Part shown: in pieces, positions 11,473 to 56,356 of the stretch
Numbering within the stretch: position 1 is the first letter of the stretch
Layout: each line of letters opens with the position of its first letter
Origin: an uncultured Gammaproteobacteria bacterium
GTDB lineage: Bacteria; Patescibacteriota; Patescibacteriia; Magasanikbacterales; JBBTQS01
Direction: 5' to 3'
Assembly: GCA_965230935.1 (NCBI GenBank)
Contig: OZ246400.1
Coordinates: forward strand, 173,705 to 237,704
Length of the DNA stretch: 64,000 nucleotides
Program-made: the position numbers and the translations under genes
The notes under the pieces: generated by a model
What the model was told of the DNA's origin: nothing
Seen by the model: only the letters and a program-made list of their open reading frames with translations
The model's database searches: none

Positions 11473-12648
11473 ATGAACTTTCAAGAACAATCAATTCAAA
11501 AACATAAGGAGGTCCAAGGAAAACTGGAGACGGTTTCAAAAATGAAGATTAAGAACACTGATGACTTGTCTGTGGCGTACTCACCTGGAATTGCCGGACC
11601 GAGTAAGGTGATTGCGCAGGACGCGTCAGCTGCATATGACCTTACCATCAAGGCCAATACTGTGGCAGTGGTGAGTGATGGTAGCGCAGTACTTGGTTTG
11701 GGTAATATCGGGCCAGAAGCGGCGCTTCCAGTGATGGAAGGGAAGGCAGTGTTATTTAAAGAGTTTGGCGGAGTAAATGCATTTCCAATTTGTTTGGCAA
11801 CGCAAGACACAGAGGAGATTATTAAAACAGTAAGGCTGATTGCCCCAGGTTTCGGTGGAATTAATCTCGAAGACATCTCAGCACCACGGTGTTTTGAAAT
11901 TGAAGAGCGTTTGCAAGATTTAGGCATTCCGGTGTTTCATGATGATCAGCATGGAACCGCAATTGTGATGCTAGCAGGACTTATGAATGCGTCTCGTGTA
12001 GTGGGGAAGAGTATGCAATCCATGCGCGTGGTGATTAGTGGTGCTGGAGCCGCAGGAACTGCAATTGCAAAATTACTCTGTTGTATGTGGAAAGAGGATA
12101 ATGTGTGTGTCGGAGTAAAGGATGTTATTGTGTGTGATTCGCGGGGTATGTTGAGCACTGATCGTGATGATTTAAATGATGCGAAGTTAGCACTCGCAAA
12201 GATGAGCAATCGAGAAGGAAGATCGGGAAGTTTGGCTGATGCTGTGGTCGGTGCTGATTTATTTATCGGTGTTTCCATTGGTGGTCTACTTACGGCTGAG
12301 ATGGTACAAACCATGGCTAAAGATCCTATTGTATTTGCTATGGCAAACCCTGTCCCTGAGATTATGCCAGATGTAGCAAAACAGGCCGGTGTGTCGGTTA
12401 TGGCAACTGGACGAAGTGATTTTCCCAATCAGGTGAACAATGTGCTGGTATTCCCGGGAATCTTTAAGGGGGCGCTTTCGGTTCGGGCAACACGAGTTAC
12501 TGAGAAGATGAAGTTGGTCGCTGCACAAACCTTAGCTGGTTTGGTCGATGAGCCAACTGCTGAAAAAATTATTCCAGCACCGCTTACTCCTGGTGTAGCG
12601 GATGCCATTGCACAATCAGTAGCGCAAGCATGGGAGTCTGCAAAATAA
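11473..12648 (+). CDS. NAD(P)-dependent malic enzyme (short form)
   Basis: DLSVAYSPGIAGP, GxGxxG NAD-binding region (VVISGAGAAGTAIAKLL), and NPVPEI motif. Confidence 0.9.
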   Translation: MNFQEQSIQKHKEVQGKLETVSKMKIKNTDDLSVAYSPGIAGPSKVIAQDASAAYDLTIKANTVAVVSDGSAVLGLGNIGPEAALPVMEGKAVLFKEFGGVNAFPICLATQDTEEIIKTVRLIAPGFGGINLEDISAPRCFEIEERLQDLGIPVFHDDQHGTAIVMLAGLMNASRVVGKSMQSMRVVISGAGAAGTAIAKLLCCMWKEDNVCVGVKDVIVCDSRGMLSTDRDDLNDAKLALAKMSNREGRSGSLADAVVGADLFIGVSIGGLLTAEMVQTMAKDPIVFAMANPVPEIMPDVAKQAGVSVMATGRSDFPNQVNNVLVFPGIFKGALSVRATRVTEKMKLVAAQTLAGLVDEPTAEKIIPAPLTPGVADAIAQSVAQAWESAK

Positions 12649-12655
12649 ATACCAT

Positions 12656-13219
12656 ATGAACAAAACAAAGATTGCACTTTCCGGAATTGCTGGTTCGTTT
12701 TCAGAAGAAGCTGCTCGCATTTATGCAAGCAGAGCTGGTTTTGAACCTGAGTGCGTTTTTGCCGTTGATATGGAAGGGGTTTTGCAATCTATTGATCAAG
12801 ATAAAGTTGAACTTGGTATTTTCCCAGTAGTAAACTCTCGAGGAGGGTTGGTACAAAGTGCATTCCATGCCATGGGAAAGCACACCTTTACTGTTCACGA
12901 TGAATTGTGGATGGAGGTGTACCAATGTTTATTGGTACAAAAGGGGACGACGACGGAGCAGATTACCAAGATCGCAAGTCATCCTCAAGCAATTGCCCAG
13001 TGTGAGCGGCATATTCGCCAGCATCATCCTGATGCTGAGCTTATCTACTGGGATGACACAGCAAAAGCTGCTCAGGATTTGGCACAGGGCGAATTTGACG
13101 CAACCACTGCAGTGATTGCACCATCACGTTCAGCACAGATTTATGATTTAGAAATTTTGGAAAAAGGAATTCAGGATAACCACCCCAATCTTACTACATT
13201 TATTGTGGTAAAAGCATAA
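12656..13219 (+). CDS. prephenate dehydratase (PDT domain only, no ACT domain)
   Basis: PDT-domain pattern (IALSGIAGSFSEEAA...PVVNSRGG...SHPQAIAQC). The ORF stops before any ACT domain. Confidence 0.7.
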   Translation: MNKTKIALSGIAGSFSEEAARIYASRAGFEPECVFAVDMEGVLQSIDQDKVELGIFPVVNSRGGLVQSAFHAMGKHTFTVHDELWMEVYQCLLVQKGTTTEQITKIASHPQAIAQCERHIRQHHPDAELIYWDDTAKAAQDLAQGEFDATTAVIAPSRSAQIYDLEILEKGIQDNHPNLTTFIVVKA

Positions 13220-13253
13220 TCAAAAAAACACCACGAGTGATGTTCTTTTGAAT

Positions 13254-13272
13254 GCCGACGTAATGCGTCGGC
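13254..13272. terminator. bidirectional hairpin between convergent genes 12656-13219 and 13305-14228
   Basis: gccgacg-taatg-cgtcggc perfect 7-bp stem. On the minus strand it is followed by a U-rich run. Confidence 0.6.
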
Positions 13273-13304
13273 TCGTTGTGTTGTTGGTGTGTGTCCTCAG
13301 ACGA

Positions 13305-14228
13305 TCAGGCGAACACCGAGGCGCCGCGGAACTGACGCATGACCCCACCTTTGAGGAAGGACAGATCACGCGACAAACGCAGTAGGTGCGCCAACTGCCG
13401 CTCAGTCTTGGTGCTCATCTTCTTGTGGTGTCGCTCCCAGAGCTCGGGCTGGGTGGCCGGATCAGGCACCTGGTAGCGCTGATCCTCGTGAGCCGGCAAC
13501 ACCGGAGCGATGCATTCGCCAAAGTGTTCGACCAAGGCCGCCAAAGGGAACACCTCCTCCACGCCCATGAGGTGGTAGTGAACCTCCTCGTCCTTGACCG
13601 GCGAGTAGCCGATCACCGCGGTATGCGCACGTTTGTACTCGTCCTTGGGCATGCCGGCCAGGTGCGGGGGGAACCCGCCCATGTCCAGCAGCGTCGGGTT
13701 GTGCCAGATGGCCATGGTGTTGGCAATGCGCCCCTCGAGAATCGACTCGGTGAGCTCGTTGATCGCCAGACCGGTAACCATGGCACCCTGCTCGAGCGCT
13801 GCCCACATGGCGTCGAAGTTCTCCTGCGTCAGGTACGGTTGAGCTTCTGTAGACGCGATCATGGAGAACTCACACCCATGCTGCAGCTGGATCCGCACTC
13901 CCTGATTGAGGATCGCGCAGTACAGGTCACCATAGGTGACGATGTGAACGGCCACATCAGCGACTCCGCTTTGCTTCATGGCATCGCACAGCGCCGCGTG
14001 TGTCTCGCCGCAGTCACTCTTGGCGTACCCATGTGCAGCCCAGACCAGCACGTCGACTCGCTTAAGGCGACTCAGCTGGTTGGCAAGGGTAAGCTGGTTG
14101 GCAGCACGGATCATCTCTACGACCTGTGCACACCGCTTCGGGACATCTTCTGCCTTCGTGGCAAAAGTGCGTAGGACAAGTCCTACATTGCGCACGCGCA
14201 TATTGCGCGGCTTGACCGAATTGGTCAT
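13305..14228 (-). CDS. hypothetical protein, high-GC cassette gene D
   Basis: 307-aa ORF with GGAGG SD 9 nt before ATG 14228. Body is strongly GC-rich with GC-rich codons. No domain recognised. Confidence 0.75.
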   Translation of the reverse strand: MTNSVKPRNMRVRNVGLVLRTFATKAEDVPKRCAQVVEMIRAANQLTLANQLSRLKRVDVLVWAAHGYAKSDCGETHAALCDAMKQSGVADVAVHIVTYGDLYCAILNQGVRIQLQHGCEFSMIASTEAQPYLTQENFDAMWAALEQGAMVTGLAINELTESILEGRIANTMAIWHNPTLLDMGGFPPHLAGMPKDEYKRAHTAVIGYSPVKDEEVHYHLMGVEEVFPLAALVEHFGECIAPVLPAHEDQRYQVPDPATQPELWERHHKKMSTKTERQLAHLLRLSRDLSFLKGGVMRQFRGASVFA

Positions 14229-14381
14229 TGGTTTCCTCCATAGTACTTCCCCAACGCATCAGGGAAATACGCAGTTGGCTTCTCACCGTACGACACTAGT
14301 CAGTTATCTGTCTTCTCCCTAACGCATCAGGAAAAATCAAGAACTGAGGGAACCGCGCCCCTACCGCTTGGCAAGACAAAA

Positions 14382-14409
14382 AGTATAGCAAAATTACTCC
14401 TTTTGTCAA
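14382..14409 (-). promoter_or_regulatory. sigma70-like promoter for gene D (minus strand: TTGACA-16-TATACT)
   Basis: Minus-strand reading ctaTTGACAaaaggagtaattttgcTATACTttt. About 145-nt leader to ATG 14228. Confidence 0.6.
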
Positions 14410-17450: not shown

Positions 17451-17479
17451 TTGACGAGGTTATGTAAGTTTTATACACT
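17451..17479 (+). promoter_or_regulatory. sigma70-like promoter for gene A (TTGACG-17-TACACT)
   Basis: cTTGACGaggttatgtaagttttaTACACTg, followed by a leader hairpin and SD. Confidence 0.6.
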
Positions 17480-17508
17480 GCAATCTCCCACTCATCAACA
17501 ATGGGAGA

Positions 17509-18576
17509 TTGGAGGTCGCTTTGAGCACACCTGAGCCTGCGGGCAAACCTGCGGTCCGGATTGTCCAGGCCGTGGACCAACCGAACATCAGCAAAGCGAT
17601 CCACGCATTGCTGTTGTTCTTCGAGGAGCGTAACTGGGTCGACAACGACGCCATGATCCTGGAGCTCGGTCGTGCGCTGCACGAGGGTCATCAGTGTTGG
17701 GCACCGGTGTACGATCGGGACGCGGTCGGGACGCGGCTCATCTACGTACTGCCGTTCGACGGAGCGCAAGGACAGCGTCGCAGCGCCACGCGCTGCGTCT
17801 GGGTGTCCACCGCACGAGCGGATCTGATGGTCGAGCACATGATCGAACTTACCACCGGGCCATACGGTCGTGGTCGTAAGGCGCCGTCGGAGGGCATGTT
17901 CATCCAGGACACCGCAGCAACCGATCACCTCAACGAGTGTATCGGTCGCAAGATCGGTCGTCCGTGGGAGGTCGCTGACATTGCGTATACCGCGTCGCAG
18001 ACTTTGGCCGCGTGGTGGGCGGAGCAGCACCCGGTTCCGGCGACGCGCCGACCGGGACGCCGCGAGCGACTCAGTGAAGAGTTGTTGGGACACGTCAGGG
18101 AAGCACTGCGTTCGTCACAGCAGTTCGCCGTGGCCCCACCGCGTGGGTCGAGTGGCATGGGTTTTTACGTCCTGCCGATCGACCAGTGGACGCTCCAGCG
18201 CTGCATCGGGATAACGCTCAACGGCCACGCTGCCGAGGATTTGTCCCGGGATCTCGCCGGTCGGATTCGTTTGCACCTTGGCGACCGTTGGGAGCTGGGT
18301 GGCGACGAGGGTCCGGTGGAGGCCGAGTCCGATGTCATGAGCGTGAGTTCGGACGAGATCGAGTTCGAGCTCGAGTTCGACGACGATGCGGATGACGACG
18401 CGGACGACGAGAACGTCGCAGAGGCCGTGGTAGTTTCGCAGGTTGTCTCCGGTGACGAGCCGACGCAGGAGGCCACGCCGAGTGCCGGCACTGCTCCCAC
18501 TGACGAGCAGATGTCCACCCCAGCTGAGGACGGCAAAGGGCGCTCCGAGGGCAACCCTCCGGTTGGCCCGGCGTAA
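17509..18576 (+). CDS. hypothetical protein with acidic C-terminal tail, high-GC cassette gene A
   Basis: 355-aa ORF. Likely real start is TTG 17521, 5 nt after GGAGG (17511-17515). GC-rich codons. C-terminal EFELEFDDDADDDADDE low-complexity region. No domain recognised. Confidence 0.75.
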   Translation: MEVALSTPEPAGKPAVRIVQAVDQPNISKAIHALLLFFEERNWVDNDAMILELGRALHEGHQCWAPVYDRDAVGTRLIYVLPFDGAQGQRRSATRCVWVSTARADLMVEHMIELTTGPYGRGRKAPSEGMFIQDTAATDHLNECIGRKIGRPWEVADIAYTASQTLAAWWAEQHPVPATRRPGRRERLSEELLGHVREALRSSQQFAVAPPRGSSGMGFYVLPIDQWTLQRCIGITLNGHAAEDLSRDLAGRIRLHLGDRWELGGDEGPVEAESDVMSVSSDEIEFELEFDDDADDDADDENVAEAVVVSQVVSGDEPTQEATPSAGTAPTDEQMSTPAEDGKGRSEGNPPVGPA

Positions 18577-18608
18577 CTTTAGCCATCACACAACACACAC
18601 AACATGAA

Positions 18609-18637
18609 GAACGCGCAAACAAGCGCGCTCTTTGTAT
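18609..18637 (+). terminator. hairpin terminator after gene A
   Basis: gaacgcgc-aaacaa-gcgcgctc stem followed by tttgtattct. Confidence 0.65.
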
Positions 18638-18710
18638 TCTGGACAAAAGTAATTTGTTATAGTATGTATAAGATACCTGCATAAGAGATAGTGCAGGAAG
18701 AGGAGATCAG

Positions 18711-19478
18711 ATGTCACATGACGAATCGGCAGCGCCCCCGCAAGTGCCGATTGAGGAGGCCATTGTTGGGTTTTGCGCCCACATTGGATTGGTCGCCCGG
18801 AGTTCGTTTGGCGAGGAGTTGGTTGCTGCGGTGTGCCGAAAGGCCGTCTGCGCGATCGACATACAACCAGACTGGGATCAACGGGCAGTCTTTCGCGTAC
18901 CAGCAAAGCACGACCGTGTCTCGGGCGTGTTCGCAGTGATCTTGCTCGACGACGCGCTGAGCGAGTCGCTGACCAATGACTTCAATGAGCTTCTGCTGGG
19001 CTATGGCGGCTCAGGAGAAGGAGATGTTGATCACTGGAGTCAGACGACCAAGCTCACCCGCGCGGTTCGTGGGCTCAAGAGCTGGTTCAAGGACAGAGGC
19101 ATCCGTCTGGAGGTTGGGGATATCAACAGCTTTGTCACCGCCTGGGAAACTGGTGAGGTGAGAGAGTGGTCGTTTGATCAAGGTCGTGGAGCACCGGTGA
19201 TTGCGTTCGTCGTGCGTCCGTACGATGCCCCCAGAGACGAACGACGAAACAGTGAAGTTTGCGTCGAGGTGCACTGGGGTGACAGGCTCAACCACGAGTT
19301 GACTGCTGGTCTGAACCAGATGATCGACGATGCGTTGGGCCCCGATCTTCACTGGGACGTTCGGCGAACCACGGATGAGGACGCGTCTACGTCTGCCCAT
19401 TTTGCTGCACAGGAGGTGGCAGCCATCGGGGGGCAACAGCGGGAGCAACCGCGCCGTCGCAGCGCTGTGGGCGAGTAA
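18711..19478 (+). CDS. hypothetical protein, high-GC cassette gene B
   Basis: 255-aa ORF. ATG preceded by GGAAGAGGAG SD. GC-rich codons. No domain recognised. Confidence 0.75.
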   Translation: MSHDESAAPPQVPIEEAIVGFCAHIGLVARSSFGEELVAAVCRKAVCAIDIQPDWDQRAVFRVPAKHDRVSGVFAVILLDDALSESLTNDFNELLLGYGGSGEGDVDHWSQTTKLTRAVRGLKSWFKDRGIRLEVGDINSFVTAWETGEVREWSFDQGRGAPVIAFVVRPYDAPRDERRNSEVCVEVHWGDRLNHELTAGLNQMIDDALGPDLHWDVRRTTDEDASTSAHFAAQEVAAIGGQQREQPRRRSAVGE

Positions 19479-19502
19479 CTCAACACAACACACAACACAG
19501 GG

Positions 19503-19529
19503 CCTCCGCTACAACTTAGTGGAGGTTTT
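19503..19529 (+). terminator. hairpin terminator after gene B
   Basis: cctccgcta-caact-tagtggagg 9-bp stem followed by TTTT. Confidence 0.7.
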
Positions 19530-19537
19530 GTAATATC

Positions 19538-19566
19538 TTGACAGGAAAGCTGTCGCATAGTATAGT
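19538..19566 (+). promoter_or_regulatory. consensus sigma70 promoter for gene C (TTGACA-17-TATAGT)
   Basis: cTTGACAggaaagctgtcgcatagTATAGTc. Confidence 0.7.
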
Positions 19567-19590
19567 CTCTTCTCTCCTCATTGCATTGCT

Positions 19591-20238
19591 TTGATTAACT
19601 ACCGGGGAGGGAAGGGGGCTAACACCTTGAGTGAAGATTGGCGCGGCTTTGTCGCGGCACGTGAGGAAGATCGCGTTGCTGCGCTTGGTGCCGCAATGTC
19701 TCATCTGATGCAGCGAGTGGGGTTCATTGACCCCAAATCGCCTGGGGACAAGAAGTCTCGGAAGGCGCTTGCACAGATGGGGTCGGCATTGGCTGCCATG
19801 ATCAGTGCCGCCCGTTCCGGTGACGTGTACATCACGGTGCTGCAGGGCGAGCAGACAGGTTCCGACGTGCTGATCCAGGTGTTGCCATTCGCCCCGACTA
19901 TGATCGGCGATGGCGACGATGCCGCGTTGGATCTGAGCATGCCGCGTCGCACTCGCGAGCGGCTGGTCATGGTCTACACTCTCTCGCCGAACGGCACTGA
20001 CCGTGGCTTCGAGTTCTCTCTGGATCTCACCACCAGCTTCAACACAGGTGTGCAGCAGGTCATCGACGTGCAGCACACATCACTCCTGCAACGAGGTTTG
20101 AGGCCCAGGGAGCGATCCGAGTCCCCCCCGGCACCAAATGGCTGGTTGACCTGGGAGGACTGGCTCGAGGAGTCGGCACGACGCGCCGAGCAGTCGGGGA
20201 CTGGAGGCGAGGAGGTCGAGGAGTCCTCAGGCTCCTGA
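19591..20238 (+). CDS. hypothetical protein, high-GC cassette gene C
   Basis: ORF from TTG 19591. More likely start is TTG 19627, 8 nt after the GGGGAGGGAAGGGGG SD-like run. GC-rich codons. No domain recognised. Confidence 0.7.
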   Translation: MINYRGGKGANTLSEDWRGFVAAREEDRVAALGAAMSHLMQRVGFIDPKSPGDKKSRKALAQMGSALAAMISAARSGDVYITVLQGEQTGSDVLIQVLPFAPTMIGDGDDAALDLSMPRRTRERLVMVYTLSPNGTDRGFEFSLDLTTSFNTGVQQVIDVQHTSLLQRGLRPRERSESPPAPNGWLTWEDWLEESARRAEQSGTGGEEVEESSGS

Positions 20239-20272
20239 TCACTCACAACAACAACCACACCACAACGGCAGG

Positions 20273-20297
20273 CCCGGCGTATACGCGACGGGTTTTC
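20273..20297 (+). terminator. hairpin terminator after gene C
   Basis: cccggcgtatacgcgacggg (contains the 10-nt palindrome gcgtatacgc) followed by TTTT. Confidence 0.6.
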
Positions 20298-20331
20298 CAA
20301 TTCTAAAGAGAAAATATGCTATGATGCCATT

Positions 20332-21087
20332 ATGTTAACAACAGCAGAAAGAAAATCAATTATTCAGCTTCATCAGAAAAAGTTTCGTGATCAGCGGGGC
20401 GAATTTATTGTTGAAGGTGAAAAAGGAGTATTAGAGGTACTACAATCCTCGTATAAAATTCTTGATCTGATAATCGAGGAGTCCCACAAAGGAAAGTTTG
20501 AATCTATTGAAGCATTAGCAATCGAACAGAAGATTAGTCCAACATGGTGTGGGAAAAAAGACGCTGCTTTGATTAAGACCACTGATACATTTCCTGGTGT
20601 GTTGGCGGTAGTGGCAAAGTCGACTTCCCACAAAAAACAGGACGATAGAGTCATCCTTATGCTCGATGCCATTGCTGATCCTGGAAATCTTGGCACTATT
20701 ATCCGCAGTGCGCATTGGTTTGGGATTACAACTATTATCCTAAGTGATCATTGTGTAGATCCATATAATCCCAAAGTGGTTCGTGCGAGTATGGGTTCGC
20801 TCTTTCATGTTGATTTGGTTCAACCTGATTTTCCTGAAGAGTTTATCAAATCGTATCAGGATGCTGGGTATCATATTGTGGTACTTGATGCTAATGGAAA
20901 GACACCAAGCAAAATGAGCGCAAATAAAAAATCTTTATATATTTTGGGAAGTGAATCACACGGGGTTCGAGATTCTTTTGCAACACTTGCCGATGAGTCT
21001 GTTGCTATTGCTGGAGATGGGTCAGCTGAATCTTTGAATGTTGCAGTTGCCGCTGGTATTTTACTGTATCATGTTGCGAGTCGGTAG
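20332..21087 (+). CDS. TrmH/SpoU-family RNA 2'-O-methyltransferase (RlmB-like)
   Basis: SpoU methylase motifs (LDAIADPGNLGTIIRSAHWFG; SESHGV; AIAGDGSAESLNVAVAAGILLY) plus an N-terminal substrate-binding region. Confidence 0.85.
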   Translation: MLTTAERKSIIQLHQKKFRDQRGEFIVEGEKGVLEVLQSSYKILDLIIEESHKGKFESIEALAIEQKISPTWCGKKDAALIKTTDTFPGVLAVVAKSTSHKKQDDRVILMLDAIADPGNLGTIIRSAHWFGITTIILSDHCVDPYNPKVVRASMGSLFHVDLVQPDFPEEFIKSYQDAGYHIVVLDANGKTPSKMSANKKSLYILGSESHGVRDSFATLADESVAIAGDGSAESLNVAVAAGILLYHVASR

Positions 21088-21821: not shown

Positions 21822-21912
21822 ATACCCTTATCATACGCGTAAGTGTTCAGCTTGAAAAGCGCGTATGCAAACACGCCATCGGTTGGGATGGGTGTTGCGT
21901 TGTGGGTGTTGG

Positions 21913-22239
21913 TTAAAAATATGCGGCCAGATGGTCGAGGAGTTCTGGGTTTGCACGCAGGTGTGCCAAGGTTTGGTCACGACGAGCCGTTGTGGTGTAC
22001 CACGTCAAAAAAGACTTTACCGCCATGGTGTACGGGCTGGTTTCGGGTCGTGAAACATGCGCGTCAAGGCACGCTTGAATCCAATCACCAAGCAAATCCA
22101 TTTGTGTTGCCGTAAGTCTACGAACAACAAATCGCGTGCTATATGGGTACAAGTCGAGAACGCGATGCCAGTGCAACTTTGGTGTACTCTTTACCAGCAC
22201 TGTGATAAGGGGTTGGTGCACGGGTTGGAGTCGTCGCAT
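21913..22239 (-). CDS. hypothetical small protein (uncertain)
   Basis: 108-aa ORF directly downstream of the Cys-rich lipoprotein, overlapping it in another frame. The C-terminal 60 aa read protein-like. The start may be an internal Met. Confidence 0.3.
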   Translation of the reverse strand: MRRLQPVHQPLITVLVKSTPKLHWHRVLDLYPYSTRFVVRRLTATQMDLLGDWIQACLDAHVSRPETSPYTMAVKSFLTWYTTTARRDQTLAHLRANPELLDHLAAYF

Positions 22240-22496
22240 GGTACATCAGCGATTTGGTCACTGATCACACTGACACATGACTGGCTCAGTGGATCCCACC
22301 AGGTGTCGATGCATGGGGTCGGGCTCACACAGATCGTTTCAGCCGGCGAGGGTTCACTTGTCGGCGCAATAGCCTGCCTGTGCGTGCATGGTTCTGATTC
22401 AATAGTAGTATGTTCATCTGACCCGACTTCACATCCCAACAATAAGATACTTAAGATGATTTGTGGTTTCATATGCTCCTTGTCCAACATCAGCAA
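22191..22496 (-). CDS. small secreted Cys-rich lipoprotein sharing the DDxNPCT motif
   Basis: Probable start at Met 22472 (MKPQIILSILLLGC lipobox; AAGGAG upstream). Mature part has 8 Cys and ends ...VPCDDSNPCTNPLSQCW. Signal-peptide codons are AT-rich; the Cys-rich part is GC-rich. Confidence 0.6.
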   Translation of the reverse strand: MLMLDKEHMKPQIILSILLLGCEVGSDEHTTIESEPCTHRQAIAPTSEPSPAETICVSPTPCIDTWWDPLSQSCVSVISDQIADVPCDDSNPCTNPLSQCW

Positions 22497-22560
22497 TTAG
22501 AGTACTATACAAGCACATTGCGAGCAGATCAAGATCTATTCTGCGTATAACCTGTTTATT

Positions 22561-32678: not shown

Positions 32679-33533
32679 ATGGAATTATTTGATACGCACT
32701 GTCATGTACATTTCAATGCCTATAAGGACGACATGCACGATGTCGTTTCTCGTTCTTTGGCCAAAGGAGTACAGATGGTGACAATTGGGACACAAAAAGA
32801 TACCAGCCGAGCTGGCGTAGAACTTGCCCGGCAGTATGATGGACTGTGGGCTGCAGTCGCGCTTCATCCTAACCACTTGTTTCCTGTGCACATTGATGAA
32901 GATGAGGTTCCGTTTATCACGCGTGAAGAAGATTTTGATTATACGTATTATAAAGAACTTGCCCAAGACCCAAATGTTGTAGCAATTGGGGAGTGTGGTC
33001 TTGATTGGTATCGGATTCCTGATGATCGGGATATCGAAGAAGTAAAAGCAAGGCAATTTCAAGTATTTGCTCAACATCTTGATTTGGCTACAGATGTGCG
33101 TTTGCCAGTAATTATTCATTGTCGTGATGCGCATGCTGAGTGTGCTGAAGTTTTGGAAAAATACATTGCTGAGGGCAAGCTAGATCGCAGAGGAATCATT
33201 CATTGTTTTACCGGAACACTTGATGAAGCGATGCGTTATATTGATCTTGGATTTGTGATTTCTATTCCGGGGATTATTACCTTTCCTCCTAAAAAAGGAG
33301 ATGGACTCACGCCACTACAAGAAGTGGTAAAACAAATTCCACTTGAGCATATGGTTATTGAAACCGATGCTCCATACCTCACACCAGTACCATATCGTGG
33401 TAAGCGCAATGAACCGTGGTATGTGCAGTTTGTTGCACAAACCATTGCTGAGTTAAAAGGCATTTCTACTGAAGAGGTCGCCCGTACCACGACACAAACA
33501 GCAAAAAAATTATTTGACCTTATCAAGATATGA
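32679..33533 (+). CDS. TatD-family metal-dependent DNase/hydrolase
   Basis: LFDTHCHV N-terminal motif, GECGLD, HCR/HCF motifs. Confidence 0.9.
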   Translation: MELFDTHCHVHFNAYKDDMHDVVSRSLAKGVQMVTIGTQKDTSRAGVELARQYDGLWAAVALHPNHLFPVHIDEDEVPFITREEDFDYTYYKELAQDPNVVAIGECGLDWYRIPDDRDIEEVKARQFQVFAQHLDLATDVRLPVIIHCRDAHAECAEVLEKYIAEGKLDRRGIIHCFTGTLDEAMRYIDLGFVISIPGIITFPPKKGDGLTPLQEVVKQIPLEHMVIETDAPYLTPVPYRGKRNEPWYVQFVAQTIAELKGISTEEVARTTTQTAKKLFDLIKI

Positions 33534-35607: not shown

Positions 35608-35826
35608 ATGGACGCAGAAATGATGCGTTTGCTCAGCAAGGCACTGGTAATGGCCATCGGTGGTTTTGCACCAGCACTTGCGATCGGTAAGCTTGTTGCA
35701 AAAGCCATGGAGGCTATTGGTCGCAACCCAGAGGCCGCAGGTAAAGTGTTTGTTCCCATGCTTTTGGGCGCAGCGTTTGCTGAAGCGATCGCGATTTACG
35801 CACTGGTTATTGCATTTACCCTGTAA
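35608..35826 (+). CDS. atpE: F0F1 ATP synthase subunit c
   Basis: 72-aa hairpin proteolipid with conserved carboxylate ([15 protein letters not shown]). Confidence 0.93.
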
Positions 35827-35876: not shown

Positions 35877-36440
35877 ATGATTGATATTGTCCATGCCGCA
35901 GAGATTGCCAAAGACGCTGCACATGCAGTGGAGGCAACCGCAAGTGCAAACCCGATTGGAACATTTGGGTTAAATCTTAAGTTGTTTATTGCCCAGTTGG
36001 TCAACTTTGCAATTGTGTTGTTGGTGTTGTGGAAATGGGTATACAAACCATTGCTTAAGATTTTACGAGAGCGAACTGATACCATTGAAAAATCACTTGC
36101 CGATGCAAAACAAATTGAACAAGATCGTCTTGCAGCAGATGAAACAACGGCGGCACAGATTAAACAAGCTAAAGAAGAGGCGCGTGCAATCATTGCGCAA
36201 TCTGCAGAAAAAGCAGAGGCACTTGCGCTTGCAGGTAAGGAAAAAGCAACACAAGAAGTGGAGCAATTGGTGGCACAAGCGAAAGCGCAAATCGCAAGTG
36301 AGCGCACAGCAATGAAAGAAGAGTTAAAAGCTGAGACGATGACGCTGGCGGTAGCGGTAGCGCAAAAGATTTTGCAGGAGAAGATTGACACTAAGGCAGA
36401 CGCGACGCTAATTGCTAAAGCAGTTGATTCAGTGAAATAA
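35877..36440 (+). CDS. atpF: F0F1 ATP synthase subunit b
   Basis: N-terminal TM helix followed by a long charged coiled coil. Position between atpE and atpH. Confidence 0.85.
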   Translation: MIDIVHAAEIAKDAAHAVEATASANPIGTFGLNLKLFIAQLVNFAIVLLVLWKWVYKPLLKILRERTDTIEKSLADAKQIEQDRLAADETTAAQIKQAKEEARAIIAQSAEKAEALALAGKEKATQEVEQLVAQAKAQIASERTAMKEELKAETMTLAVAVAQKILQEKIDTKADATLIAKAVDSVK

Positions 36441-41213: not shown

Positions 41214-41242
41214 TTGACAAATATTCAATTTTAATGTATTGT
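41214..41242 (+). promoter_or_regulatory. sigma70-like promoter for Cys-rich lipoprotein gene (TTGACA-17-TATTGT)
   Basis: aTTGACAaatattcaattttaatgTATTGTg. Followed by a GC-rich structured leader (ggccacagtggcc palindrome; gccatg...catggc stem). Confidence 0.55.
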
Positions 41243-41337
41243 GCTACCTTATAGGAGGGCCACAGTGGCCAGCCATGCGGCGATGATTCCATGGCATGAA
41301 GCTGTGGGTTCTTTGACAATTAGAGGGGGTTCGAAAG

Positions 41338-43989
41338 ATGAATCGAATAGCTATTACCCTTGCCTTTGCCGCCCTGATCGCAGGGTGTGCAGACGCATCG
41401 GTAGATCCAGGAACGGTCGAGTGTTTCGGCGAGGCCTGTGCCAAGCCGGACGCCGATACGACCGGTGGTGGGGAGGTAGTCCCTCCGGATACCACACCGG
41501 ATGTCGGCGACACCGGTGATGACAGTGATGATCCGGATGTGCTCGAGACCGACGACGGTGCTGAGGTGGACGACATCAATGACGCCGATACGGCCGTCGA
41601 GGATGTGGACATCGACGTTCCGGACGAGGGTGATGATGGCGACACGCCGGATGTGCCCGAGACCAACGACGGTGCTGAGGTGGACGACACCGAGGACACC
41701 GACGAGACGACGGACACGGACGAGACCGATACGCCTGTTGATCCCTGCGATGGGGTCGACTGCACGGACGACAACCCGTGCACCATCGACGAGACGTGCG
41801 TGGATGGCGAGTGTGTCAGCTCGCCGGTCGTCTGCAACGATGACAATCCGTGTACGGACGATGCGTGCGTCGTGATTGAAGGTGGGTGCGTGTATACCCC
41901 GAACGCAGTGCTGTGTGAGGATGGCGACCCGTGTACGCTGGAGGACGCCTGTGTGGACGGTTCCTGTGCGCCTGGCGCACCGAAGATCTGCCAGGATGCC
42001 AACTTCTGCACCGTGGATGCGTGCGACCCGGTTTCCGGGGAGTGTGCCTTCGTGGTCGTGCCCGAGCCCTGCGATGATGGGAACGAGTGTACGCAGGAGG
42101 AGGTGTGTCAGCAGGACGCCACGTGTGGCAACGGGGCGGAAGTGGAGTGCGCAGACGAAGATCCGTGCACGAACGACAGCTGCAATCCGGACTCGGGTTG
42201 TGTGTTTGCTCAGAAGGAGTGCGACGACGAAGATCCGTGCACCGTTGACTTGTGCGAGACCGAGTCTGGCGAGTGTACCTTCGTGATCGTGCCGGAGTGC
42301 AAATGCGCTCCTGAGCAGTGTACGGACGACAACCCGTGCACGTCGGACGTGTGCAACCCGCTCGACGGGTCCTGCTCCTTCCCGTTCAACACGGAGCCGT
42401 GTGACGATGGCGACCCGTGTACGTTGGAGGACGCCTGTGCGGACGGTTCCTGTGCGCCTGGCGCGCCCAAGTCGTGTATCAGTGAGAACATCTGCCTGAG
42501 CGCGAGCTGCAATCCGGAGACGGGGAGCTGTGAGCTGAGTGAGAACACCGCGCCGTGTGACGATGGCGATGCGTGCACCCAGGAAGATGTGTGTAACGAA
42601 GGTTCGTGCGCTGGCGTGCTGATGGTGTGTACGGACGACAACCCGTGCACCGAAGGCGACACGTGCAATGGCGGCACTTGCGCCGCCGGGGAAGCCAAGG
42701 TCTGCGAAGACGGTAACCCCTGCACGGTTGGTGCGTGCGACCCGGATTCCGGGGAGTGCGCGTTTTCCCCGGACAACGGGGGAAGCTGCACGGACGACAA
42801 CCCGTGCACCAACGACGTCTGCCAGGACGGGGAGTGTGTGAGCGAGGCCAACAGCGCCTGCTGCACTGAAGACGCGCAGTGCGCTGACGAGCTGGCCTGT
42901 ACGCAGGACCAGTGCGTGGAGCAGTTGTGTAAGAACTTCGTCATTCCGGGCACCGGGCATTGCCTTATCGAGGAGGTGTGTATTCCGGAAGGGGTGGTCA
43001 ATTCGGCCAACGACTGTGAGGCTTGCACCTCGATGGTCAACCCCAACGGGTGGAGCCCGCTTGTGGATGGGAGCGATTGCGAAGATGGACAGGCGTGCAC
43101 CGAAGGCGACACGTGCAATGGCGGCACTTGCGCCGCCGGGGAAGCCAAGGTCTGCGAAGACGGTAACCCCTGCACGGTTGGTGCGTGCGACCCGGATTCC
43201 GGGGAGTGCGCGTTTTCCCCGGACAACGGGGGAAGCTGCACGGACGACAACCCGTGCACCAACGACGTCTGCCAGGACGGGGAGTGTGTGAGTACCACAG
43301 TCGCGTGCGACGACGGTCTCCCATGCACTCTGGATTCGTGTGACGAGGCGGGCGAGTGTCAGTACGAGCCCAAGACGTGTGACGACTCCAATCCGTGCAC
43401 CATCGATTCGTGCGAGCAGAGCACCGGCGATTGCGTAGGTGAGCTTGCTACGGTGAAGTTCCAGGACATCACCGCGGCCAAGTGCCTCACGCTTCCGCCG
43501 TTCATGCCATGGTTCGCGTTTGATGACTTCGATGACTCGGAGTCGCCCAATTCGAACATCTGGCACTGCGGTCACGACTGCCTGAACATCGACGCGGCCT
43601 GCCAGTCGCAAGTCGGTACGATCCGTCCCGGGTTTACGCACAACGGGGACCAGCACACCTTTACCATCGACCCGCAAGCAGCGTTTCCGGAACTTGACGG
43701 CATGACCATCTCGGCCGCCTTCACGTTCCGCAGGCAAGGGGTAACGCCCAACGACCTGACGCCGCCTGAGGTTGTGGTGAAGCAGACCATCGACGGAATC
43801 GAAACGGTGCTTGCCTCGCAGTTCCTGGGCAAATCACCGAACAACAATTTCGATTTCCTGGTCGAGTTCCTGGTTGGTGATGGTTTGGTCACGGTGTACT
43901 ACACGCCCAACGACTTCATCCCCGACTCGGAACGCACGCTGCACATCATGCTCGACTCGAACATCGAGCTGCAGCCTGTGTGTCCCTGA
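41338..43989 (+). CDS. large Cys-rich tandem-repeat lipoprotein (CxDDNPCTxDxC repeats, slime-mold/Dicty-CTDC-like)
   Basis: Lipoprotein signal (MNRIAITLAFAALIAGC), acidic D/E/T-rich linker, then roughly 20-25 repeats of about 22-25 aa with 4 Cys each (e.g. CTDDNPCTIDETCVDGECV). C-terminal roughly 170-aa Cys-poor domain. GC-rich codons. High-GC cassette gene E. Confidence 0.85.
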   Translation: MNRIAITLAFAALIAGCADASVDPGTVECFGEACAKPDADTTGGGEVVPPDTTPDVGDTGDDSDDPDVLETDDGAEVDDINDADTAVEDVDIDVPDEGDDGDTPDVPETNDGAEVDDTEDTDETTDTDETDTPVDPCDGVDCTDDNPCTIDETCVDGECVSSPVVCNDDNPCTDDACVVIEGGCVYTPNAVLCEDGDPCTLEDACVDGSCAPGAPKICQDANFCTVDACDPVSGECAFVVVPEPCDDGNECTQEEVCQQDATCGNGAEVECADEDPCTNDSCNPDSGCVFAQKECDDEDPCTVDLCETESGECTFVIVPECKCAPEQCTDDNPCTSDVCNPLDGSCSFPFNTEPCDDGDPCTLEDACADGSCAPGAPKSCISENICLSASCNPETGSCELSENTAPCDDGDACTQEDVCNEGSCAGVLMVCTDDNPCTEGDTCNGGTCAAGEAKVCEDGNPCTVGACDPDSGECAFSPDNGGSCTDDNPCTNDVCQDGECVSEANSACCTEDAQCADELACTQDQCVEQLCKNFVIPGTGHCLIEEVCIPEGVVNSANDCEACTSMVNPNGWSPLVDGSDCEDGQACTEGDTCNGGTCAAGEAKVCEDGNPCTVGACDPDSGECAFSPDNGGSCTDDNPCTNDVCQDGECVSTTVACDDGLPCTLDSCDEAGECQYEPKTCDDSNPCTIDSCEQSTGDCVGELATVKFQDITAAKCLTLPPFMPWFAFDDFDDSESPNSNIWHCGHDCLNIDAACQSQVGTIRPGFTHNGDQHTFTIDPQAAFPELDGMTISAAFTFRRQGVTPNDLTPPEVVVKQTIDGIETVLASQFLGKSPNNNFDFLVEFLVGDGLVTVYYTPNDFIPDSERTLHIMLDSNIELQPVCP
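42644..42842 (+). repeat. 199-bp perfect direct repeat, copy 1 (inside Cys-rich lipoprotein gene)
   Basis: Identical base-for-base to 43094-43292. Encodes CTEGDTCNGGTCAAGEAKVCEDGNPCTVGACDPDSGECAFSPDNGGSCTDDNPCTNDVCQDGECVS. Confidence 0.95.
43094..43292 (+). repeat. 199-bp perfect direct repeat, copy 2
   Basis: Identical to 42644-42842. The 450-nt offset is exactly 150 codons, so recombination between copies would be in-frame. Confidence 0.95.
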
Positions 43990-44020
43990 CCCTCAAGACA
44001 ACAACAAACCTACAACAGTA

Positions 44021-44055
44021 AGAGCTCTCCTTTCCAGGAGGGCTCTTTCTATTTA
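44021..44055 (+). terminator. hairpin terminator after Cys-rich lipoprotein gene
   Basis: agagctctcc-tttcca-ggagggctct 10-bp stem followed by ttctatttatt. Confidence 0.7.
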
Positions 44056-47332: not shown

Positions 47333-47388
47333 AGGATCTTGCGCAAAACCAACATCTGCAGTATCCTGCCAAGTAGGCAGGTGTTTGT

Positions 47389-47793
47389 TTGCCAATATTG
47401 GCATCTATGACTTTACGACAATATTTGCTTGTGATGAGCTTTGCTACATTGCTATGCTTGATAGCATTGGGGTTTGTGATTTTTATGATTGACCCCTTTG
47501 AATCAAATCTCCTCGGCGTGGTGCTCTTTTATGCAAGCTTCTTTCTCTCAGTGCTGGGTGTCTTTTCATTGGTAGGGTTTGGTATTGAGAGCCTAGTGTT
47601 TAAACGAGAAACCATTATTTTTCGGAAGGTCAAAAAAAGTTTTCGCCAAGGGGTGTTGTTTGCCACATTACTTTGTGTTGTGTTGGCGTTAGCACACGCC
47701 CAAATGTTGTTTTGGTGGACGATTTTACTCTTGGCTATCGGCTTGAGCTGCATTGAATTTGTGTGGTCTCGAGAAAAACGTATTCGATCGTAA
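47389..47793 (+). CDS. hypothetical membrane protein
   Basis: 134 aa with four hydrophobic helices. Confidence 0.55.
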   Translation: MPILASMTLRQYLLVMSFATLLCLIALGFVIFMIDPFESNLLGVVLFYASFFLSVLGVFSLVGFGIESLVFKRETIIFRKVKKSFRQGVLFATLLCVVLALAHAQMLFWWTILLLAIGLSCIEFVWSREKRIRS

Positions 47794-55534: not shown

Positions 55535-56356
55535 ATGGCAAAAACCATTGTGACGCACAAAAATCCTCATGTTGATGATGTGGCAGCCATCTGGATTTTT
55601 TTGCGTTTTATTCCAGCATGGGCAAATGCCAAAATGGTGTTTGTACATGCCGATAGTAAGCAGCGCATGCGTGACACACGAGATAAAATTCATATTGGGG
55701 TTGGTCATGGCGCATTTGATGAACATAAAGGAAACACCAAAGATAGTGCAACAACATTAGTGTGGAAATGGGGCAAGAAAAATCGTAAGTACGCTCTTTC
55801 TACCATTGAGACACGGGCGCTTAAGGAATTAGTGCACTATATCAATGACGAGGACCACGGCTTGCTGTTTGCGCAACAAGCGCGCGAGTTTATGATTGGT
55901 TCGGTGTTTACCTATCTTCCATCAGTTACTAAACAAGGTTCTCGGGGATCTTTACAATTTGGGCTTAAATATCTTGATGCGGTATTTTCAGGTCTCAAAG
56001 AAAAGCACGCGCTGCTCGCTGATTGGCGCAAACGAAAAGAATTTACTACCAAGTGGGGGAGGGGGGTTGCGATTACCACCAAGGTTAGCTCAAAGGTAGT
56101 GGCGCGAGTAGCGTACGCTAAAGGGTTTACTTTATTTGTATATCGAAATCCTGTCTCAAAATACACATCGATTAAGGCGCAAAATAATTCTCGGGTAAAC
56201 TTAACGCGTGCGTATAATGCCGTGAAAAAATTAGAACCCAAAAGCGAATGGTATTTGCACCACAGTAAAAAAATGTTGATTTGCGGTTCTGATGTAGCAG
56301 CAAATCTGTACTTGTCCTCAGCACCTCTGAGTACATTGATTTCTTATCTGCGCTAG
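55535..56356 (+). CDS. hypothetical metal-dependent hydrolase (MYG1/UPF0160-like)
   Basis: THKNPHVDDVAAIWIF...IGVGHGAFDEHK resembles the MYG1 N-terminal metal-binding pattern (THxxxxHxDE...VDVGG.YD..HH). Confidence 0.5.
   Translation: MAKTIVTHKNPHVDDVAAIWIFLRFIPAWANAKMVFVHADSKQRMRDTRDKIHIGVGHGAFDEHKGNTKDSATTLVWKWGKKNRKYALSTIETRALKELVHYINDEDHGLLFAQQAREFMIGSVFTYLPSVTKQGSRGSLQFGLKYLDAVFSGLKEKHALLADWRKRKEFTTKWGRGVAITTKVSSKVVARVAYAKGFTLFVYRNPVSKYTSIKAQNNSRVNLTRAYNAVKKLEPKSEWYLHHSKKMLICGSDVAANLYLSSAPLSTLISYLR

Follow-up and report, generated by a model that had tools for sequence, protein, structure and literature searches.

What is a block of three GC-rich open reading frames (ORFs) doing in a small genome of about 43% GC, and do the three ORFs work together? 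The public record of this genome contains a contig of 931 kb. The locus lies in a 64,000-nucleotide (nt) stretch of an uncultured bacterium assigned to the Patescibacteriota in the GTDB lineage (contig OZ246400.1, positions 173,705 to 237,704; hereafter the window), where positions 17451-20297 contain three plus-strand ORFs, A, B and C, filling 17509-20238 at 59-64% GC. A previous description of this DNA, made from its sequence alone (the original prediction), presented them as a tandem trio of independently transcribed genes and a candidate accessory system. The analyses described here showed that A, B and C are real protein-coding genes that are separately framed, compositionally foreign and orphan, and that they belong to a class of six similarly built units, the cassettes A, B, C, D, F and E. 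Judging from these sequence features, they are probably three separate protein-coding genes of foreign, GC-rich origin, each in an insulated and strongly expressed single-gene unit. The best reading is that the foreign genes are horizontally acquired, orphan and accessory.

Long ORFs in GC-rich DNA are not necessarily genes. Such DNA opens long frames on both strands, and antisense ORFs of 129-228 amino acids (aa) are present here; in addition, the trio has no homologues, and single-sequence AlphaFold2 models were not confident (mean predicted local distance difference test score 36.6 for B and 37.7 for the globular part of A) and could not be used. The ORFs could then be chance frames, the antisense of a true gene, structured RNA or an assembly artifact. 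However, the observed open-frame length was reached by 0 of 3000 shuffled sequences for A, 5 of 3000 for B and 25 of 3000 for C, and a leave-one-out codon model, trained each time on the other four GC-rich genes, selected the annotated frame as the best of six for every GC-rich gene. The antisense and alternative frames of the trio matched no Pfam family, and the leaders and 3′ regions of the cassettes had no Rfam match. In every case a Shine-Dalgarno (SD) sequence and a start codon stand at the 5′ edge, and the stop codon is found just ahead of a tract made of C and A nucleotides (C/A tract). Independent assemblies of two sequencing runs, processed with two pipelines, agree exactly on the nucleotide sequence of A-B-C and on its junctions; therefore, the block is not an assembly chimera. 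It is thus hardly credible that these ORFs are not genes. The three same-strand GC-rich ORFs of the original prediction were confirmed by the ORF list, their GC content and the frame and shuffle tests, and its caveat that the antisense frames might be the real genes was answered by the same frame comparison. A further argument comes from cassette E, which has the same build and encodes a clear lipoprotein with a Pfam domain, a combination that supports reading the other cassette ORFs as protein genes.

The composition of the trio differs from that of the carrier genome at every level analyzed. The GC contents of A, B and C are 0.64, 0.59 and 0.62, and those at third codon positions (GC3) are 0.75, 0.65 and 0.72. 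GC3 splits the genes cleanly, with values of 0.65-0.76 in A, B, C, D and E and 0.31-0.42 in the well-supported host genes. As had been noted, GC content drops between the ORFs, to 0.38 in the 110 nt that follow A and 0.45 in those that follow B. Codon preferences are correlated within the set of five GC-rich genes (r from 0.54 to 0.86), while the values against host genes range from -0.25 to 0.01. Lysine accounts for 1.4-2.0% of the residues in A-C versus a host mean of 6.3%; the combined fraction of glycine, alanine, arginine and proline is 0.31-0.34 versus a host maximum of 0.30, and that of phenylalanine, tyrosine, methionine, isoleucine, asparagine and lysine is 0.13-0.14 versus a host minimum of 0.19. 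This amino acid make-up, outside the host range, indicates that the proteins evolved in a GC-rich setting and are not recoded native genes.

The same separation was found in the translation signals. SD strength was expressed as the energy of the duplex formed with a generic anti-SD sequence. In addition to the energies of A, B and C listed in Table 1, the values for D and E are -9.3 and -12.4 kcal/mol. Only 3 of 49 host genes have a duplex of -7.4 kcal/mol or better, and most others are close to zero. The three exceptions are the ORFs at 55535 and at 35608, the latter within the ATP-synthase gene cluster, and a gene of the TatD family at 32679. Host genes typically start 1-4 nt past the preceding stop codon (TAA) or 5-12 nt past a -10 box. 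Examples of host starts are those at 20332, 17410 (minus strand), 22561 and 44085, and the starts located close behind a -10 box look leaderless.

The trio represents half of the six-cassette set, which is spread over 30 kb of the window. All six cassettes share the order promoter, SD leader, ORF, C/A tract of about 20 nt and terminator, although the hairpin of F is weak (Table 1). The C/A run begins 2-10 nt past the stop codon, is 18-24 nt long in A-E and 35 nt long in F, and the motif ACAAC is recurrent in it. When the best 18-nt window within 45 nt downstream of the stop codon was scored, all 18 positions were C or A in D, A, B and C, and 17 were in E. Among the other 53 ORFs none reached 18 and two reached 17, both of them in A-rich coding or leader sequence of the next gene. 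A strict composite test, which demanded three elements in order (a C/A tract, a hairpin at least as stable as -8 kcal/mol and a T run), found four sites in the 64-kb window versus a single weak one in about 1.5 Mb of sequence from other genomes. The hairpins located 3′ of the ORFs of cassettes A-E have folding z-scores between -2.6 and -5.3, and significant stem-loops in the leader were found in B and D. The promoter scan called the sites of A, C and D; the sites of B and E were identified by eye. The cassettes occupy operon boundaries, two of the four sites being in divergent intergenic regions. The GT-rich runs at 36013-36032 and 47380-47718 were considered as partner RNAs and ruled out because they code for membrane helices; the remaining long GT or CA runs of the window are also inside membrane-protein genes. 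Since D, F and E have the same build, A, B and C are members of a genome-wide class and do not make up a three-gene system. The original prediction had named D, which does belong with A-C, and had overlooked the membership of E and F, the C/A tract and the SD contrast.

Table 1. Location of the features of the six cassettes in the window. Coordinates of minus-strand parts are given in the direction of reading.
Feature	Coordinates	Strand	Evidence
Promoter-like site of A, TTGACG-17-TACACT	17451..17479	+	Promoter scan, 9/12 consensus positions
Leader of A: small stem-loop, GGAGG SD 5 nt upstream of TTG 17521, 7-codon upstream ORF	17486..17520	+	SD duplex -11.8 kcal/mol
Gene A: 351 aa, isoelectric point 4.6, acidic low-complexity C-terminal third	17521..18576	+	ORF list, codon model, shuffles
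C/A-only tract 3′ of A, 18 nt	18587..18604	+	Composition of post-stop sequence
Terminator of A: hairpin, then T-rich run	18604..18635	+	Fold z -3.6
Extended -10 of B, TGtTATAGT	18655..18663	+	Read by eye; not called by promoter scan
Leader of B: 7-bp stem-loop, then GAGGAG SD	18676..18710	+	Stem-loop z -2.9; SD duplex -9.4 kcal/mol
Gene B: 255 aa, isoelectric point 4.95, start ATG 18711	18711..19478	+	ORF list, codon model, shuffles
C/A-only tract 3′ of B, 19 nt	19481..19499	+	Composition of post-stop sequence
Terminator of B: hairpin, then TTTTG	19497..19531	+	Fold z -5.3
Promoter-like site of C, TTGACA-17-TATAGT	19538..19566	+	Promoter scan, 11/12 consensus positions
Gene C: 203 aa, SD region GGGGAGGGAAGGGGG upstream	19627..20238	+	SD duplex -13.0 kcal/mol; ORF list, codon model
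C/A-only tract 3′ of C, 23 nt	20244..20266	+	Composition of post-stop sequence
Terminator of C: hairpin, then TTTTCC	20267..20298	+	Fold z -2.6
Cassette D: TTGACA-16-TATACT promoter (14409-14382), structured leader of ~150 nt, SD	13220..14409	-	Promoter called by scan
ORF of D, 307 aa	14228-13305	-	
C/A tract of D	13294-13275	-	
Two hairpins of D	13272-13220	-	Fold z -4.5
Cassette E: promoter-like site TTGACA then TATTGT, leader of ~90 nt, GAGGGGG SD	41214..44050	+	Promoter read by eye
C/A-rich tract of E	43994-44016	+	
Terminator of E	44017-44050	+	Fold z -4.7
Cassette F (GC 0.51), between rluB and gpsA: TTGATC-17-TATAGT, AAGGAG SD	21855..22540	-	Promoter read by eye
Lipoprotein ORF of F, 93 aa	22472-22191	-	
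Separate ORF of F, 62 aa	22101-21913	-	
C/A-rich tract of F (35 nt), then weak hairpin and T run	21915-21881 (tract)	-	Hairpin and T run read by eye; strict terminator test failed

The idea that A, B and C are one functional system kept together, such as a toxin with its immunity protein, an effector with its chaperone or an anti-phage defense, finds some backing in the fact that the genes are neighbors on one strand and similar in composition. Furthermore, all three products are acidic and soluble, have low-complexity C-terminal tails and lack a signal peptide or membrane segment. Nonetheless, each gene has a strong terminator and a promoter-like site of its own. The individual promoters and terminators that the original prediction assigned to the genes held for the three terminators and for the promoters of A and C, while for B there is only an extended -10 read by eye. 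The units abut: the T-rich tail of A enters the promoter region of B directly, and only 8 nt separate the tail of the B terminator from the -35 element of C. No PADLOC, Pfam or NCBIfam match to a defense or toxin-antitoxin component was obtained. The comparison of A, B, C and D with one another, which had been suggested as a check for shared folds, detected no sequence similarity; A, B and C resemble each other no more than expected by chance, and the best pair (A-B, z 2.2 versus shuffles) was not significant. Finally, D, F and E are built in the same way and stand alone, so the class does not need adjacency. With terminators between its genes, no mutual similarity and no match to defense models, the trio is quite unlikely to be one system.

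The separate units suggest instead a sequence of steps for how each foreign gene would be expressed. The host gene for tRNA-Asn carries a TTGACA-16-TACAAT promoter, from which it follows that the cell reads promoters of this type and that the carrier's own machinery should transcribe the cassettes. The carrier sigma-70 polymerase would start at the promoter-like site, which is near consensus in C, moderate in A and reduced to an extended -10 in B. The leader, with its strong SD, would then recruit ribosomes, and the cassette messages would be translated preferentially because almost no native message has an SD. At the 3′ end, the C/A tract may separate the terminator hairpin from both the terminating ribosome and the GC-rich coding RNA, and it is perhaps also a protein-binding site. 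The tract sets the hairpin 21-33 nt past the stop codon and, since it has no G or T, it cannot contain start or stop codons or pair with itself. In the last step, the hairpin and its U run would end the transcript and shield the neighboring housekeeping operons from read-through. From these signals we infer that the carrier expresses the cassettes strongly and in insulation from their neighbors, and that the C/A tract serves as a spacer.

Searches for relatives of the three proteins were negative. A, B and C had no relative in about 15 billion known proteins, and each matched only itself among 5.8 billion protein clusters. Pfam, NCBIfam, PHROGs, PADLOC and PDB sequences gave nothing for A-C, nor did phage and plasmid DNA (50,697 phage records searched by tblastn, and 72,556 plasmids). 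An exhaustive phmmer search of 1.84 billion representatives, with the globular part of A as the query, produced a single match (P0007, E=8e-5), which was rejected as a homologue because it consists of a 23-residue stretch matched repeatedly in a repeat protein. For D, a scan of Joint Genome Institute (JGI) metagenomes found no match, and its orphan status is less firm as the large protein collections were not used for it. When A or its halves were used in jackhmmer searches against 4,701 ORFs, A alone was recovered, and an all-against-all BLAST comparison found nothing significant. A strand motif, hhYVLPxD, that occurs twice in A and also in B, C and orphans of two related metagenome contigs described below (L052 and L057) was not supported by shuffles, jackhmmer or BLAST. 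The empty family searches, together with the codon, amino acid and SD differences, agree with the claim that the genes have no recognizable motif and a non-housekeeping, accessory or foreign look, and no housekeeping homology, which was to count against that claim, was found.

Genes with these properties are known from phages. Phage morons have their own promoter, their own terminator and a composition unlike that of the surrounding genome. The cassettes resemble them in being single ORFs with a promoter, a terminator and atypical composition set between unrelated genes, and orphan genes are typical of phage cargo, so they could be moron-like remnants of a phage or another mobile element that once integrated. 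However, they are located in a cellular chromosome, where they occupy four separate places between housekeeping operons, either alone or as the trio, and no integrase, transposase, phage gene, recombinase or reverse transcriptase was present among the examined ORFs of the window or in about 9 kb on each side (about 82 kb altogether). The other genes of this region are housekeeping genes or orphans of host composition, and next to the trio they include the amine-oxidase-type flavin adenine dinucleotide (FAD) genes and the SpoU methylase that the original prediction had described, as it had the acidic tail of A. There is no PHROG match and no tblastn match in the phage records mentioned above, and flanking repeats are missing. 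The cassettes also differ from morons in being GC-richer than their surroundings, in the C/A-only tract that precedes the terminator and in the SD-less genes of the carrier. We regard an origin as leftovers of a mobile element as unlikely.

Other systems that carry or move genes are similar in part. Like integron cassettes, the trio consists of tandem single ORFs in the same orientation, often orphan in integrons, with a hairpin-forming element behind each. In contrast to integrons, the ORFs examined include no integrase and the trio lacks RYYYAAC ... GTTRRRY attC cores; the only attC-like core pair near the 3′ end of a cassette is inside the coding sequence of B. In addition, the hairpins of the trio are short terminators of the ordinary kind, and every unit has a promoter to itself, whereas integron ORFs are promoterless and depend on a common promoter. 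Without attC cores and flanking repeats, an integron or transposon origin was ruled out. Among the marks of genomic islands, the cassettes show atypical composition and codon usage, and mobility genes, a tRNA target site and flanking direct repeats were not found at them. A survey of aquifer Patescibacteria attributed up to 13% of genome length to transfer and named donors and multi-gene islands, without mention of promoters (PMC12455944). Both cases involve foreign-looking genes in very small genomes, with about 9% of the window occupied by the five GC-rich ORFs here, but the cassettes are single genes with a fixed expression build, for which no donor or mobility genes were found. The T-DNA genes of Agrobacterium, considered as an analogy only, also differ in composition and translation signals from the bacterium that carries them. 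Unlike T-DNA, the cassettes are scattered, have no border repeats or transfer genes in view and have promoters that suit the carrier.

Related genomes offered another view of the class. The ATP synthase beta subunit was used as a query and retrieved metagenome contigs at 68-77% identity, several of them from 0.2-μm groundwater filtrates. Together with the small genome, this points to a probable Patescibacteria-like organism. None of these contigs encodes a relative of A-E, but two of them, L052 and L057, contain four and one GC3-outlier ORFs, respectively. These outliers have a TTGACA promoter, a structured leader, a strong SD, a GC-rich ORF and a terminator, as the cassettes do. At 11848-12836 (plus strand) of L052, a putative carbonic anhydrase gene that is AT-rich and lacks an SD precedes a GC-rich ORF that is 43% identical to it. 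This GC-rich carbonic-anhydrase-like copy is located just downstream of atpC and has a double SD and its own terminator. Its 43% identity to the AT-rich neighbor points to the acquisition of a foreign copy.

Several results weigh against horizontal acquisition of separate, strongly expressed foreign genes. No attC-type cores and no flanking direct repeats of at least 8 nt were found at the cassettes, which adds to the lack of mobility genes, and no donor lineage was found for A-C even though GC-rich bacteria are well sampled. No protein role for A-C was backed by structure or homology in the searches made. All assemblies are identical and sample one clonal population. Promoter-like sites are not enriched as a class in the region (12 found versus 10.5 expected), and the cassettes of the two related contigs lack a clean C/A tract. 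Lastly, the GC-rich composition ends sharply at the ORF edges and the promoters look native, which is not predicted by the simple transfer of a donor fragment.

The sharp boundary and the native-looking promoters would also fit an alternative in which the cassettes are a standard module for genes that serve or target another, GC-rich and SD-using cell, or the product of a dedicated, undescribed capture mechanism with a fixed frame. The presence of one 3′ module behind six unrelated ORFs and the concentration of SD sites on cassette genes, in a genome otherwise almost without them, speak for the same alternative. In one form of it, a frame made of native promoter, SD leader, C/A spacer and terminator would take up ORFs from a GC-rich partner or donor, or would carry genes that act on or in a GC-rich, SD-using host, and the C/A tract would be a recognition or processing mark of such a mechanism; we consider this form improbable. 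Against a module or capture mechanism, neither a recombinase or reverse transcriptase nor a repeat border was found nearby, the promoters suit the carrier's own polymerase, the relatives lack the tract, and ordinary transfer followed by selection for expression could yield much of the same picture. Taken as a whole, this explanation is very unlikely. Horizontal acquisition of single genes that are expressed by the carrier thus continues to be the preferred reading.

If the genes were acquired in this way, their retention calls for a reason. Tiny genomes are thought to shed DNA that they do not need, yet about 9% of the 64-kb window is taken by the five GC-rich, foreign orphan ORFs. No other promoter-like sites found in the window are as clear as those of the cassettes, nor are the ribosome-binding and termination signals found elsewhere in it as strong. 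This retention, together with the strength of the signals, implies that the cassettes matter to the organism and makes them natural candidates for its tie to a partner, a competitor or a phage. A role of A-C in conflict or in interaction with a partner (host cell, competitor or phage) is a tentative proposal, and a metabolic or housekeeping role is less likely. The coexistence of SD-led foreign genes and SD-less native genes in one cell makes the question of how start signals are used testable. In turn, the C/A tract is a simple, searchable mark for the full set of cassettes and for a protein or process that reads it.

Some details of the trio complement Table 1. Gene A has an alternative start at TTG 17509, which would extend the protein to 355 aa, and gene C has one at TTG 19591 (215 aa); TTG 17521 and TTG 19627 were preferred because of the SD positions. 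Public gene callers gave shorter proteins, 307 aa for A and 180 or 203 aa for C. The stem-loop in the A leader is not significant by itself (folding z 0.2). The upstream ORF in the same leader (17501-17524, plus strand, seven codons) has a C/A-rich stretch upstream and ends in a TGA that overlaps the TTG start at 17521 (cTTTGAg), an arrangement that may represent translational coupling as in host genes. Sequestration of the SD by folding was not supported for the C leader, which folds no better than its shuffles (z +1.7). Two independent assemblies break in the part of A that encodes the acidic tail, at 18105 and 18406, where contigs L003 and L002 begin. Short GAC/GAT repeats or local strain variation could cause these breaks.

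The remaining cassettes have features of their own. In the D leader (14229-14375, minus strand), two copies of TTYCCTGATGCGTTRGGGA pair as a stem of about 22 bp within the 150-nt leader (z -2.8), and this stem could be a regulatory RNA element. The E ORF (41338-43989, plus strand) encodes an 883-aa lipoprotein with nine Dicty_CTDC repeats (Pfam E=1e-35). The protein has the lipobox LIAGC, an Asp-rich linker, a near-exact internal duplication of cysteine-rich repeats and a unique C-terminal domain of about 170 aa, and it is likely a surface or adhesion protein of foreign origin. One CDDSNPCT repeat in the F lipoprotein is identical to a repeat in E; F may be an older or decaying member of the class, or a two-ORF unit. 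Outside the window, about 1.0-1.7 kb upstream of its first base (contig L036, 7365-8075, minus strand), two units, each running from a promoter to a terminator, lie in tandem; they are about 205 and 400 nt long, have the promoters TTGACA-17-TATAGT and TTGACA-17-TAGTAT and show a GC content of 0.54. They contain no convincing ORF, have no Rfam or transfer-messenger RNA match, and are candidate non-coding RNAs.

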